A stretch of 64,000 nt of DNA from Escherichia phage WPEC5. A program made the translations under genes and the position numbers. The DNA is taken from the sequence record PV654397.1; one strand, written 5' to 3'. Within the stretch, counting starts at the first letter, position 1; each line of letters opens with the position of its first letter. Of this stretch, positions 27,821 to 44,930 are shown in pieces. Below the pieces are notes generated by a model, which saw nothing but the letters and a program-made list of their open reading frames with translations, was not told where the DNA came from and searched no databases.

Positions 27821-27828
27821 ATTAATAT

Positions 27829-27854
27829 GCCAGTACTTGATACTGGCTTTTTTG
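27829..27854 (+). terminator. array cassette terminator hairpin
   Basis: GCCAGTACTTGATACTGGC then TTTTTTG; -10 box TATAAT and AAGGAGG SD of next gene follow. Confidence 0.6.
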
Positions 27855-27887
27855 ATTAAATATAGTATAATGAATAAAGGAGGAAAT

Positions 27888-28997
27888 ATGTTACCTTTTG
27901 TAAGAATGGTTAAGTACGGGAATATTGCACCAGTACCGAAAAAAATAAAGAAAGTTATAGCAGGATATGATAATTTATATGTACTATATGGTGATGGTTC
28001 GCTATATGGTTGTGGAATCAATAACTATCAACAGTTAAATATTGATGGAACTGCTACACAAAATAATTGGGTACTAATTACCAATGGTGTTAGTAATGCA
28101 TGGGCTGGTGGATACAATATTTTATATTTGAAAGAAGATAAATTTATAATGCACGGAACTAATGTCTCATTAGGTTTAGGAAATACTACAATTCCATTAG
28201 GTGGAGTAGATGTAACTTCTTCATTCCCAGATATCTCTAATATTAAAATGATATCCATTGGTTTTGATTCAATGCACTATGTTAGTGCTGATGGTACAAC
28301 TGTATATGGAAGAGGTATGAACACAAATGGTTCTGTTGGTTCAGGTAGTACTTACTCACAGAGTACTTTCACTTCAGTACTGAATAATGGAACTAATCAG
28401 GTTATTGATATATTTGGTAACGTTAATAATACAGTGCTTCTAACATCGAATGGTGAGCTTCGAGCATGTGGGACAAGTGCTTATGGTTCTATAGGAAATG
28501 AAACTGGTAAGTGGACATCGTTTGGTTTAAAATTATCTGGCACTAAAATAATGGGTGGTAATGGGTATAGTACGCTTGCATATACAAATTCGGGAATGTA
28601 CCACTCAGGGTGGCAGTTAAATGGGGAACTAGGAAATGGTTTAGATACTAACGTACAGGTATATCCATTTCAATTTAACTCTAAAACGATAGATAGCAAG
28701 ATAGATAAAATTGCCAAATCATCATCTGGGTCATATGTTAACATGTACTCAACAACAGAAGGAAAGATATATACGACAGGTTCGTTTGGTAAAAACGGGT
28801 CAACTACTGCATTGAATTTGTTCACCAATACATTAACACTTATAAATTACAATCCAGATACCGCCTCGTTGTATACGTGCACAAACTTCAGTGTTGTGTA
28901 TGATGGTAATGAAACTATTGCTGTAAGTGGTAGTCCTACATATGTACCAGGGGGCGTTGCCGCTAATAGATGGACTACAATTCCATTACCCAAGTAA
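27888..28997 (+). CDS. RCC1-like repeat protein, leader family member 2 (369 aa)
   Basis: Start set to family leader MLPFVRMVKYGN (track start 27759 runs through terminator and promoter); TATAAT box and AAGGAGG SD. Confidence 0.75.
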   Translation: MLPFVRMVKYGNIAPVPKKIKKVIAGYDNLYVLYGDGSLYGCGINNYQQLNIDGTATQNNWVLITNGVSNAWAGGYNILYLKEDKFIMHGTNVSLGLGNTTIPLGGVDVTSSFPDISNIKMISIGFDSMHYVSADGTTVYGRGMNTNGSVGSGSTYSQSTFTSVLNNGTNQVIDIFGNVNNTVLLTSNGELRACGTSAYGSIGNETGKWTSFGLKLSGTKIMGGNGYSTLAYTNSGMYHSGWQLNGELGNGLDTNVQVYPFQFNSKTIDSKIDKIAKSSSGSYVNMYSTTEGKIYTTGSFGKNGSTTALNLFTNTLTLINYNPDTASLYTCTNFSVVYDGNETIAVSGSPTYVPGGVAANRWTTIPLPK

Positions 28998-29003
28998 TAC
29001 TAT

Positions 29004-29032
29004 GCCAGTACTTGATGCTGGCATTTCTTTTT
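29004..29032 (+). terminator. array cassette terminator hairpin
   Basis: GCCAGTACTTGATGCTGGC then T-rich tract. Confidence 0.6.
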
Positions 29033-29068
29033 GTATTAAATATAGTATAATGTATAAAGGAGGAAAAT

Positions 29069-43008: not shown

Positions 43009-43014
43009 TATAAT

Positions 43015-43042
43015 GCCAGTACTATGTACTGGCTTTTCTTTT
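43015..43042 (+). terminator. array cassette terminator hairpin
   Basis: GCCAGTACTATGTACTGGC then T-rich tract. Confidence 0.55.
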
Positions 43043-43691
43043 ACATATTATATAATGTGAATGCAGTTACTTTACCAGTTGTTGTTAGTTCATTATAAAG
43101 ATACTCCAAGATTCTCGCACACTCTAAGTATATCTCGATATCATCATGAATAAGTGAGTACTGAAATAGCTGTTCTTCAGATAATTTGTATTGACTTCCT
43201 TTTAATGAATTGAGAATATCTTTCACATCATCAAGTACTGGGTAAAGTACGAAATCTTCATCATATTTTGAAGCAATAAATTCAAATCCACCACCATCAG
43301 TACTAGATATACCAATCAGTACTTTATCAATCAAGTTAATGTTTATATAACGGTTGTGATTTGGGTGAATTGAAATCTCAAACATACGAGTACTGTTACA
43401 ATCAACATCAATATACAAATATACATCGTTGAATTTATAAGTTAAGCAACCGTACTCAAGAAAATCAGAGCAAATAATTGATGAGTTTTTTCTCGTCTCT
43501 GCGTAATGCATCTTGATATTCTTTTCACGCATAAGTAATTCGAACTTTGCACTAAACTTGCCACCAGCAAGATAGTTAGTATTAGGACGTTTGTAACTTG
43601 CAACTGGTCGGTGGGATGATGTAAAGTATTTTTTTGTGAATCGTTTATGTTTAGTGAAATATTCTTGATAGAACTTACTTCTTTTATTCAT
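43041..43691 (-). CDS. hypothetical protein (216 aa), opposite-strand insertion in the array
   Basis: ORF with GAGG SD; N-terminus MNKRSKFYQEYF resembles the small-protein family; no nuclease motif recognised. Confidence 0.5.
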   Translation of the reverse strand: MNKRSKFYQEYFTKHKRFTKKYFTSSHRPVASYKRPNTNYLAGGKFSAKFELLMREKNIKMHYAETRKNSSIICSDFLEYGCLTYKFNDVYLYIDVDCNSTRMFEISIHPNHNRYININLIDKVLIGISSTDGGGFEFIASKYDEDFVLYPVLDDVKDILNSLKGSQYKLSEEQLFQYSLIHDDIEIYLECARILEYLYNELTTTGKVTAFTLYNM

Positions 43692-43768
43692 GAGTACCTC
43701 AATTAAATCGCTGTAAAATTGTACATTATAAAATGATTAAATAAAGTATAACACAAGGAGATTTTATC

Positions 43769-44893
43769 ATGTTACCTTTCGTATTGTTATTTGATTATGG
43801 GAACGAAAAACAAGAAAGTTCTTATGATGTTAGTGTATATGGAAACAATAACTACATTTTAAATAAACAAACTGGAAACCTTTTTGCATCCGGTGCTGCG
43901 GCATTCATGGGTGATAACACAGTTAAGTATTATATTACCCAAATAGAATCAAATGTTCATAGCTGTGAGATAGGTTTCCTATCATCATGGATAATTAAGA
44001 AGGACAAAACTGTTTTCATTTTAGGAAACAAAAGCAGTATAGGATTAACTGGTTCGACAACATCATGGTTCGAAATTACAAATTTATTTTCTGCTGTTCC
44101 TGAAATATGGGACAACCTATTTGAATGTAAAGTTCAATTGGGATATAACTGTATACGTGTTATGACACCACTAGGATCAATCTATGCGATTGGTACAAAC
44201 ACTTATGGTGCATTGGGTACTGGTACTACATCCTCATCAACTTCGTTCGTTAAAAGTGGTGCTGTGGATGCTGTACGCATGGAATCAACAGAACGTTCAG
44301 TGTTCTATCAAAACAGTTATGGACAATGGTTTGGATGTGGTGATAACACATATGGTATACTAGGTCTAGGAACTACCGCTAGTCGTGTAAACTCATACAC
44401 CGCACCAGTATGGACTAATGCAGAAGCTGTTAGCTTCTCTAACCGTGGGATCATATACAGCCTCAATGGTACTCTATACTCATGTGGTGACAAAGTTAAT
44501 GGTCAGCTAGGGGATGGATATACACAAAGCATAGACGCAGCCAGGAGCACACCATACACCATAGGAACCGCATTCCAAATTGGTAAGGCAATAACATCAG
44601 CTACACAAGCATCAGCCAACGTATTCATTGGTAAAGATAATAAGTTCTATGGTACTGGTAGTATTGCTGCTGGTATAAATGGTAGTACTAGTGCTGCATT
44701 AAGTAAAGTTACTGCGTTATCAGCAGCACTACCACCTGACATTACATACAATGATATTATAACATTCAATACAGGGACCGTAACTTTTATTCAAGCAAAA
44801 GGACAACTATATTATGTTGGTAGAAGAACTTACATAGATAATAGTTCAGACGTTACCACACAGTTCAGTGTAATTGGTGGCTTAGATAATTAA
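43769..44893 (+). CDS. RCC1-like repeat protein, divergent leader (374 aa)
   Basis: Leader variant MLPFVLLFDYGN; motifs GTNTYGALGTGTT, GDNTYGILGLGTT, GDKVNGQLGDG; AAGGAG SD. Confidence 0.75.
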   Translation: MLPFVLLFDYGNEKQESSYDVSVYGNNNYILNKQTGNLFASGAAAFMGDNTVKYYITQIESNVHSCEIGFLSSWIIKKDKTVFILGNKSSIGLTGSTTSWFEITNLFSAVPEIWDNLFECKVQLGYNCIRVMTPLGSIYAIGTNTYGALGTGTTSSSTSFVKSGAVDAVRMESTERSVFYQNSYGQWFGCGDNTYGILGLGTTASRVNSYTAPVWTNAEAVSFSNRGIIYSLNGTLYSCGDKVNGQLGDGYTQSIDAARSTPYTIGTAFQIGKAITSATQASANVFIGKDNKFYGTGSIAAGINGSTSAALSKVTALSAALPPDITYNDIITFNTGTVTFIQAKGQLYYVGRRTYIDNSSDVTTQFSVIGGLDN

Positions 44894-44899
44894 AATTAA

Positions 44900-44930
44900 T
44901 CCAGTACTATTATAGTACTGGATTTTTATT
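44900..44930. terminator. bidirectional terminator between array and membrane-protein operon
   Basis: TCCAGTACTATTATAGTACTGGA palindromic hairpin with T-runs on both sides. Confidence 0.6.

Follow-up and report, generated by a model that had tools for sequence, protein, structure and literature searches.

Candidate terminators and T4-type late promoters at the junctions of an RCC1-like gene array in Escherichia phage WPEC5

How is a gene expressed when it is preceded by a TATAAT box but by no -35 box? The question is raised by a 64,000-nucleotide (nt) stretch of Escherichia phage WPEC5 (sequence record PV654397.1), called the window below, which contains an array of tandem paralogous genes, 14 of the 15 encoding RCC1-like beta-propeller proteins, and a repeated cassette of about 70 base pairs (bp) at the junctions between them. 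An earlier note had assigned these junctions to a separate transcription class, different from that of the rest of the window. We consider it fairly probable, from the sequence, that the cassette is an intrinsic terminator followed by a T4-type late promoter and a Shine-Dalgarno (SD) box. The promoter word would be TTAAATA, and for a promoter of this type the absence of a -35 box is expected. A separate class is probably not involved, since TTAAATA is a T4-type xTAAATA word and such words are used elsewhere too. The promoter class is most likely a known one, with every component of a known kind. What is new here is the late-class assignment of the junctions, the statistics of TAAATA avoidance, and the link between the junctions and reshuffling of the array. 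The cassette reveals no new kind of promoter; it presents an ordinary signal in an unusually tidy, repeated form.

Junctions of the RCC1-like gene array

By megablast the window belongs to the genus Asteriusvirus, jumbo phages of E. coli and Salmonella with genomes of about 350 kb (121Q, PBECO4, phAPEC6). The flanks of the array are 94-99% identical to several Asteriusvirus phages, and megablast found no GenBank phage covering the array itself colinearly. The relative used for whole-genome tests was ECO103 4-12-1 (OR844650.1; 351,992 bp, complete, unannotated), which is colinear with the window except in the array. The cassette alignment comprised 44 distinct internal cassettes from seven phages, and 40 distinct hairpins from seven phages were compared.

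The complete module consists of a stop codon, 6-16 nt, GCCAGTAC-loop-GTACTGGC, a T-run, (T)GATTAAATATAGTATAATGAATAAAGGAGG, 4-5 nt, and ATG. Its 23-nt core TATAGTATAATGAATAAAGGAGG, with at most three mismatches, occurs nine times on the plus strand and never in 100 shuffled sequences, and the repeat is thus present far beyond chance. Eight junctions carry near-identical cassettes and one a diverged full module. There are also two promoter-only halves, two hairpin-only ends, and four junctions with an SD box only. The count of eleven junctions with the same module, made earlier, is reached only if the halves are included. The general make-up proposed for them (terminator, promoter-like box, SD box) was borne out by the junction read-out, by the folding of the hairpins and by a terminator scan. 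The array, delimited by open reading frames (ORFs), Pfam and PHROG matches and N-termini, and its junctions are as follows.

26672..44893, plus strand: array of 15 tandem paralogous genes
26566..26671, plus strand: upstream region with the promoter of the first gene, intergenic and divergent, lacking a terminator; TATAAATA at 26637-26644, SD box AAGGAGA
26645-26653, plus strand: extended -10 box TGATATAAT of the first gene
27821..27887, plus strand: full cassette; hairpin 27829-27847 (-10.5 kcal/mol), T-run, TTAAATA 27856-27862, TATAAT 27866-27871, SD box AAAGGAGG, ATG 27888
28998..29068, plus strand: full cassette; hairpin 29002-29024 (-12.0 kcal/mol), TTAAATA 29036-29042, TATAAT 29046-29051, SD box, ATG 29069
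30251..30324, plus strand: diverged module; hairpin 30253-30282 (ATACCAGTAC..GTACTGGTAT, -15.0 kcal/mol), T-run
30288-30325, plus strand: signals of the diverged module; GTAAATA 30288-30294, TATAAT 30298-30303, SD box GGAG 30312-30315, probable ATG 30325
31435..31504, plus strand: full cassette; hairpin 31438-31463 (-16.1 kcal/mol), TTAAATA 31472-31478, TATAAT 31482-31487, SD box, ATG 31505
32648..32718, plus strand: full cassette; hairpin 32654-32672 (-12.6 kcal/mol), TTAAATA 32686-32692, TATAAT 32696-32701, SD box, ATG 32719
33910..33981, plus strand: full cassette; hairpin 33913-33939 (-13.6 kcal/mol), TTAAATA 33949-33955, TATAAT 33959-33964, SD box, ATG 33982
34720..34791, plus strand: full cassette with altered -10-like box; hairpin 34725-34747 (-11.5 kcal/mol), TTAAATA 34759-34765, TATATT 34769-34774, SD box, ATG 34792
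35923..36000, plus strand: full cassette heading the four-gene operon 36001-40640; hairpin 35936-35954 (-12.4 kcal/mol), TTAAATA 35968-35974, TATAAT 35978-35983, SD box, ATG 36001
37177-37185, 38305-38316 and 39466-39479, plus strand: SD-only junctions of the four-gene operon; no hairpin, no TAAATA
40641..40710, plus strand: full cassette with altered box, heading the two-gene operon 40711-43008; hairpin 40647-40665 (-12.4 kcal/mol), TTAAATA 40678-40684, TATAAA 40688-40693, SD box, ATG 40711
41857-41871, plus strand: SD-only junction of the two-gene operon
43009..43048, plus strand: terminator only, ending the 40711-43008 operon; hairpin 43015-43033 (-12.4 kcal/mol) and TTTTCTTTT, followed by the minus-strand ORF 43041-43691
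about 43730..43768, plus strand: promoter half of the last gene; TTAAATA 43737-43743, AAG, TATAAC 43747-43752, SD box AAGGAG, ATG 43769
44894..44930, plus strand: terminal terminator of the array; hairpin 44898-44924 (AATCCAGTACT..AGTACTGGATT, -15.1 kcal/mol), T-run

The four junctions lacking the module, three within 36001-40640 and one in the pair 40711/41872, are 9-15 nt long and indeed contain an SD box alone, which supports operon formation by the genes joined in this way. TATAAT, claimed for every junction, is found at eight of eleven; TATATT, TATAAA and TATAAC stand at 34769, 40688 and 43747. The box ends 16-17 nt before the ATG, in agreement with the earlier estimate of about 16 nt.

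These junctions are not discussed in the papers describing phAPEC6, Sharanji and fEgEco12. The GenBank record of UE-S1 labels some of them merely "terminator" and "repeat_region".

Candidate terminators

All eleven hairpins fold at -10.5 to -16.1 kcal/mol, with z-scores of -3.3 to -5.7. The stems begin 6-16 nt past the stop codon, and each is followed on the sense strand by at least five T in the next 8 nt. A consensus scan of the window yielded 26 terminator-like sites against 8.2 +/- 3.5 expected, and called all eleven hairpins of the array. The features shared with Rho-independent terminators are the G+C-containing stem of 7-12 pairs, the loop of 3-8 nt, the U-run immediately 3' of the stem, the position relative to the stop codon, and the retention of pairing through two-sided changes. 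The described succession of hairpin and T-run is present, but the T-run, like the loop, differs between copies.

The outermost pair is kept in all 40 distinct hairpins (GC in 37, GU, AU and UA in one each). In the window it was changed on both sides to A-U in the hairpin 30253-30282 and to U-A in the hairpin 44898-44924. There are 16 loop variants among the 40 hairpins. The core arms are invariant and therefore provide no information either way on the maintenance of pairing. The hairpin GCCAGTAC-loop-GTACTGGC with its U-run would thus serve as a Rho-independent terminator closing the transcript of the upstream RCC1-like gene. No known RNA family was identified: the sole Rfam match, preQ1-II with E-value 0.68, is under the gathering score and is attributed to chance.

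The stem of the cassette differs from other terminators of the phage. It is built from the palindrome CCAGTACTGG containing AGTACT, whereas the others have unrelated stems and UUCG-type loops. AGTACT (extended TCAGTACTGA) is also the most over-represented hexamer, with 273 sites in the window against 21.6 expected and 919 against 119 in the relative. The over-representation is 8-13 fold throughout the genome; the counts for palindromes with a similar base composition are 48-215. The sites (e.g. 790, 9355, 26599, 27830, 45803) fall in all three codon phases, are mostly intragenic, and peak at 61-67 per 10 kb in the early-gene region. In addition to the arms of the RCC1 terminators, AGTACT is part of the early promoters.

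Candidate late promoters

The alignment of the junctions suggested by the earlier note was done, and it revealed a conserved anatomy with TTAAATA as the invariant element. This word has no changes in the 44 internal cassettes and lies 3 nt upstream of TATAAT, the spacing TTAAATA-N3-TATAAT being fixed in all of them. The hairpin arms and GGAGG are also invariant; the pre-hairpin region, the loop and details of the T-run vary. In the window all 11 promoter-bearing RCC1 genes have xTAAATA (x is A, G or T) 32-37 nt before the ATG. The internal cassettes carry TTAAATA, in which the initial T is unusual for the phage group, and the first gene has a perfect TATAAATA. In diverged junctions (30298 to 30325 in the window and the last-gene type in relatives) the distance between TATAAT and ATG is not kept, but xTAAATA is present.

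The promoter of the first gene at 26637-26644 matches the T4 late consensus perfectly in WPEC5. Four relatives have GGGGTAAATA at this position, with GTAAATA as the promoter word, and the perfect consensus results from a 2-nt insertion (TA) in WPEC5.

Outside the array, variants of the same word are strongly enriched in the relative at positions -65 to -26 of start codons: ATAAATA 16-fold, CTAAATA 11-fold, GTAAATA 6-fold. Most copies of ATAAATA precede start codons of the structural region at 65-220 kb by 36-57 nt. Altogether, about 50 other genes of the relative have an xTAAATA word at a distance of 28-65 nt. The 51 VTAAATA sites upstream of other genes are embedded in a cassette-like context, T-rich upstream and A-rich downstream. 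Six xTAAATA sites of the relative, one of them TTAAATA, directly follow a perfect hairpin with a T-run. Two junctions with a terminator followed by a late promoter were observed in the window outside the array, at 57610(-) and 59185(-). They consist of GGTTGACTTCGGTCAACC, a T-run, and GTAAATA or ATAAATA, and their UUCG-loop hairpin is unrelated to that of the cassette.

Elsewhere the word is avoided, with an about 3-fold depletion over the genome. Observed TAAATA copies amount to 0.23 of the expected number in the window and to 0.36 in the relative. The depletion extends to each of the four NTAAATA words (ratios of 0.28-0.46), while words of similar composition are near 1 and TATAAT has ratios of 1.26-1.67. 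Of the 14 TAAATA copies on the sense strand of the 18.4-kb array, 11 are the promoters; on the antisense strand 19.5 would be expected and there is not one. On the other hand, the array contains 27 copies of TATAAT, mostly intragenic, against 24 expected. Since TAAATA is avoided and TATAAT is not, selection treats TAAATA as the dangerous word.

A late motif ATAAATA, likened to T4 TATAAATA, has been predicted in the Rak2-like phages CBB and GAP32 together with two other promoter classes, and the three classes of the WPEC5 group match those (PMC5259590). T4-like late promoters consist of a -10-only word at -13 to -6, and its upstream-most positions vary, e.g. CTAAATA in Aeh1 (PMC1524935). A gp55-like late sigma factor is encoded in the relative by the ORF 133662-134501(-), which matches the profile of the gp55 family (120 proteins) with E-value 1.5e-12, phrog_12791 ("sigma factor for late transcription") with 2.7e-154, and phrog_234 (the T4 gp55 family) with 8.4e-18. 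The family profile was needed, as phmmer and tblastn searches with T4 gp55 produced no match in the proteome of the relative; a weak tblastn match at 129.6 kb was rejected as an unrelated 318-aa protein. The gp55-like gene is preceded by a middle-type promoter, a placement also reported for the late sigma gene of CBB (PMC5259590). Finally, the products of the array are found in virions. Those of phAPEC6 contain the array proteins gp006, 007, 009, 010, 549 and 551 (PMC7247149), and the GAP32 homolog of the array proteins is a virion protein (PMC5259590). This fits late expression.

One can suggest the following mechanism. The T-rich tract would be followed by TTAAATA as a variant of the late word xTAAATA, located at about -12 to -6 and read by the host core RNA polymerase with the phage gp55-like late sigma factor. 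The first transcribed nucleotide would lie within TATAAT, about 5-7 nt past TTAAATA, and the leader would be about 20 nt long. The near-perfect SD box (AAGGAGG), 4-5 nt from the ATG, would drive translation. In this scheme TATAAT would most likely supply the A/T-rich sequence around the start site of the late promoter; any role as a sigma70 -10 box would be weak and secondary at most.

Like T4-type late promoters (TATAAATA at -13 to -6, recognised by gp55 together with gp33 and the sliding clamp gp45) and the predicted ATAAATA promoters of CBB and GAP32, the cassette has one short A/T word and no -35 box. Further features that it has in common with them are the location 30-60 nt upstream of virion-protein genes, a phage gp55-like sigma factor, avoidance of the word elsewhere, and a variable upstream-most position (A/T at -13; C at -12 in Aeh1). 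The differences are that the internal cassettes have T where other promoters of the same group have A, C or G, that a consensus TATAAT follows after 3 nt, and that the promoter is predicted here from the sequence. If the prediction is correct, the most variable Asteriusvirus locus has a testable transcription map of eleven separately terminated late units, including a four-gene and a two-gene operon. The late word and its avoidance are useful for the annotation of Asteriusvirus genomes.

The TATAAT box

An alternative is that TATAAT is a sigma70-type -10 box working without a -35 box, through sigma70 aided by the T-tract, through a phage activator, or through an RpoD-like sigma factor. The transcript would then start at about AAAGGAGG and have a very short leader. 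The box is a perfect consensus at eight of the 11 window junctions, its flanks AGTATAATG are the same as in the early promoters, -12T and -11A are invariant in the 44 cassettes, and the first gene has a true extended -10 box. Moreover, Asteriusviruses encode an RpoD-like sigma factor (PMC11895373).

However, no candidate -35 box spaced by 16-19 bp matches TTGACA at more than 3 of 6 positions in the 11 junctions, in line with the earlier note, which saw no TTGACA-like hexamer at 16-18 bp. The TG dinucleotide at -15/-14 is absent from the internal cassettes, which have TA instead; only TGATATAAT of the first gene contains it. With neither -35 nor TGn, sigma70 alone is a poor candidate and very weak activity would be predicted; the suggestion that a phage factor may be needed is plausible. 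A sigma70-type scan of the window showed no excess (81 sites against 101 expected). The -7T of the hexamer is essential for sigma70. Here it is the least conserved base, changed in six of the 44 cassettes (TATAAC in four, TATAAA in two), and the copies with broken -7T, like TATATT in the window, precede intact, conserved genes. Further, the SD box would lie 1-3 nt from the 5' end, TATAAT is not avoided within the array genes, and, unlike xTAAATA, it does not keep its distance to the ATG in the diverged junctions. Overall, we regard recognition by sigma70 in place of a late sigma factor as unlikely.

Nor does TATAAT set the cassettes apart. GTATAATG is found in 30 copies in the window, 21 of them on the minus strand of 1-21300 in early promoters. 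As the word is common to the early promoters, the -10 box of the cassette is not special; only the -35 box is missing. Several candidates for an upstream element were considered and rejected. TTGATA of the hairpin loop lies 22-28 bp upstream in all cassettes but one (27837, 18 bp from TATAGT) and hence provides no general -35 box. The sole TG(A/T)TT-like word is 6-7 bp from the -10 box instead of the approximately 12 bp of a MotA-dependent middle promoter. The phage's own middle-type promoter, GGGACA or GAGACA as the -35 box with TGnTATAAT, is absent from the cassettes.

Another possibility is a dual promoter xTAAATA-N3-TATAAT, read early by sigma70 or the RpoD-like factor and later by the gp55-like factor, with prolonged expression of the RCC1-like genes. 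Overlapping promoter classes are established in T4 genes. Both words are conserved with the fixed spacing of 3 nt, and the composite recurs in the relative outside the array, at three genes (24548+, 84140-, 189106-), and, with TGn, at the first gene of the array. However, the sigma70 part inherits all the weaknesses listed above, cassettes with a broken TATAAT persist, and the TATAA-like stretch after other late promoters reflects only a weak A/T preference. Dual recognition therefore also seems improbable.

Several observations weigh against the T4-type late promoter. TATAAT is a perfect consensus in most copies, with the GTATAATG flanks of the early promoters and fixed -12T and -11A, and some contribution of sigma70 to the cassette promoter is conceivable. 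TTAAATA is the sole variant of the word not enriched upstream of other genes of the relative (1.4-fold, 4 of 81 copies). With T at the first position the internal cassettes are atypical late promoters and could be weak. The distance from the word to the ATG, 32-33 nt, is among the shortest seen for late genes (mode 36-44). The gp55-like gene was identified in the relative, outside the window, and homologs of gp33 and gp45 were reported as not detected in CBB (PMC5259590). The high identity of the cassettes could result from gene conversion alone. The literature contained no promoter or transcriptome study and no transcript mapping of any Asteriusvirus that we could find, and the start site, the timing and the sigma factor of cassette transcription are all inferred.

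Duplication and reshuffling of the junctions

We searched the 352-kb relative with a profile of the eight window cassettes. There were 11 strong and two weak matches, all in the RCC1 array; thus the genome-wide check proposed earlier revealed no cassettes elsewhere. A mobile element or a genome-wide repeat can be rejected, as full copies occur in the relative only in the array. A blastn search with one cassette retrieved 35 GenBank phages, all of them Asteriusvirus, with 3-13 copies each and about 289 in total, and an exact search of IMG/VR with the 23-mer retrieved only two contigs. The identity between paralogs is 76-92% from -72 to +45 against 25-45% in the flanking coding DNA. Copying together with the genes explains why the family stays within the array; it does not form a genome-wide regulatory class. 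The duplication unit would be a gene with its junction. Selection on the signals and recombination between copies may have kept the junctions alike while the gene bodies diverged.

The homology blocks shared by the window and the relative open at a cassette and stop within the following gene, about 36 nt from its start. The order of the genes lettered E, F and G differs between phages: E-F-G in the window, F..E-G in ECO103, E-G-F in UE-S1 and F-G..E in 121Q. Even where genes lack an ortholog in the other phage, their cassettes are 91-95% identical. The differences that would indicate cassette swapping relative to orthologous genes are small, 0.90-0.95 against 0.95-0.97, and lend it weak support. 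The junctions therefore act as recombination joints, either as a selected function or as a by-product. Differences in array size and gene order among near-identical phages may be explained in this way: the shared homology of the junctions would let whole gene units be gained, lost and reordered.

In the extreme case there is no promoter in the cassette at all. The hairpins would be partial terminators, attenuators or stabilising 3' stem-loops, the array would be transcribed by read-through from 26637-26653, and the cassettes would be homogenised by gene conversion or unequal crossing-over. Indeed, the identity is at least 90% even at non-orthologous junctions, the variants TTTCTTATTT or TATAACAAAT are common to several junctions of one genome as after conversion, the first four codons have no synonymous changes, and the breakpoints fall at cassettes. 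On the other hand, the loops, the T-run and the pre-hairpin region vary freely while the stem, TTAAATA and GGAGG are fixed. Nine consecutive terminators with energies of -10 to -16 kcal/mol would allow little read-through, and yet phAPEC6 virions contain the products of several array genes, located at the two ends of its genome map. The avoidance of TAAATA elsewhere in the array shows selection on the word, and the cassette-free spacers of 9-15 nt are what a pure operon junction looks like. We consider a promoterless cassette very unlikely.

With the terminator and late promoter as the preferred content of the junction, one more role can be proposed, rather tentatively. The region of about 115 bp from the hairpin to codon 12 may be the joint of a cassette-exchange system, by which whole propeller genes are added, deleted and reordered through homologous recombination of junctions within or between co-infecting Asteriusviruses, each gene with its terminator, late promoter, SD box and MLPFxRMxxYGN tag; TAAATA-N3-TATAAT could also be a two-sigma promoter. 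If such exchange takes place, the phage population maintains a rapidly shuffling repertoire of virion-associated propeller proteins.

Tandem paralog arrays with an individual promoter and terminator for each gene are known among the host-takeover genes of the SPO1 terminal redundancy and in the T4 early clusters. The RCC1 array resembles the tandem arrays of large phages in that a gene and its regulatory junction are copied as one unit, and in that copy number and order vary between close relatives. The early region of the window, 1-21300(-), with its 21 near-identical promoters, has the same habit. The differences are that the RCC1 junction is conserved about three times better than the genes it joins, and that the promoter is of the late type. 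Tandem duplication was already noted for phAPEC6, and the growth of jumbo phages by this route is a view cited for phAPEC6 and 121Q (PMC7247149).

RCC1-like proteins and neighbouring genes

The gene starts are the following.

26672, 27888, 29069, 30325, 31505, 32719, 33982, 34792, plus strand: first eight genes
36001, 37186, 38317, 39480, 40711, 41872, 43769, plus strand: last seven genes

A Pfam scan of eight proteins identified RCC1, RCC1_2 or WD40_RLD in six; gene G and the minus-strand ORF 43041-43691 had no match. The PHROG match of an array protein is "regulator of chromosome condensation" (1.4e-96). For gene D, the fourth of the array, the most probable start is 30325 (MLPF..., conserved MLPFVRMFDYGN, SD box GGAG at 30312-30315) and not the mechanical ORF start 30310. 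In phAPEC6, 83% of the predicted proteins have no known function (PMC7247149).

The N-terminus MLPF(V/A)RM(F/V)(D/K)YGN is present in all 15 proteins. The first 36 nt of the genes exist in two linked forms, MLPFVRMFDYGN and MLPFARMVKYGN, with almost no synonymous changes, and the rest of the gene bodies diverged to about 30% nucleotide identity. As these 12 residues are found also behind the SD-only junctions, in operon-internal genes, and in the non-RCC1 gene G, conservation past the ATG does not stem from the cassette alone. One may speculate that the common N-terminus acts as a tag by which these proteins are targeted to, or assembled into, the virion.

Gene G (33982-34719, plus strand, 245 aa), the exception among the array genes, has the common cassette and N-terminus and no RCC1 match in Pfam. 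It belongs to phrog_4474 of unknown function and is kept in 121Q (gene 243), UE-S1 and ECO103. The 216-aa ORF 43041-43691 on the minus strand (phrog_34359, unknown function) splits the array between the 14th and 15th genes. An ORF of this type is also adjacent to the array in UE-S1, 121Q and ph0011.

Other promoter classes

A third promoter class was observed in the relative, with a -35-like box (G/T)GGGACA or TGAGACA and TGnTATAAT. Its members are scattered over the genome, e.g. at 134564(-), 178539(-), 197548(-) and 255195(-) of OR844650.1, and may be read by the phage RpoD-like sigma factor.

The 21 early promoters on the minus strand of 1-21300 have the structure AAAAAGTACTTGCAA, N14, nGTATAATGTTTTACAT, and there is about one per small gene (e.g. 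893, 3592, 10888, 18356, 19597 and 21276). Most of them are followed by a leader hairpin GGGGAGA..TCTCCCC, which forms the second repeated regulatory module of the window.

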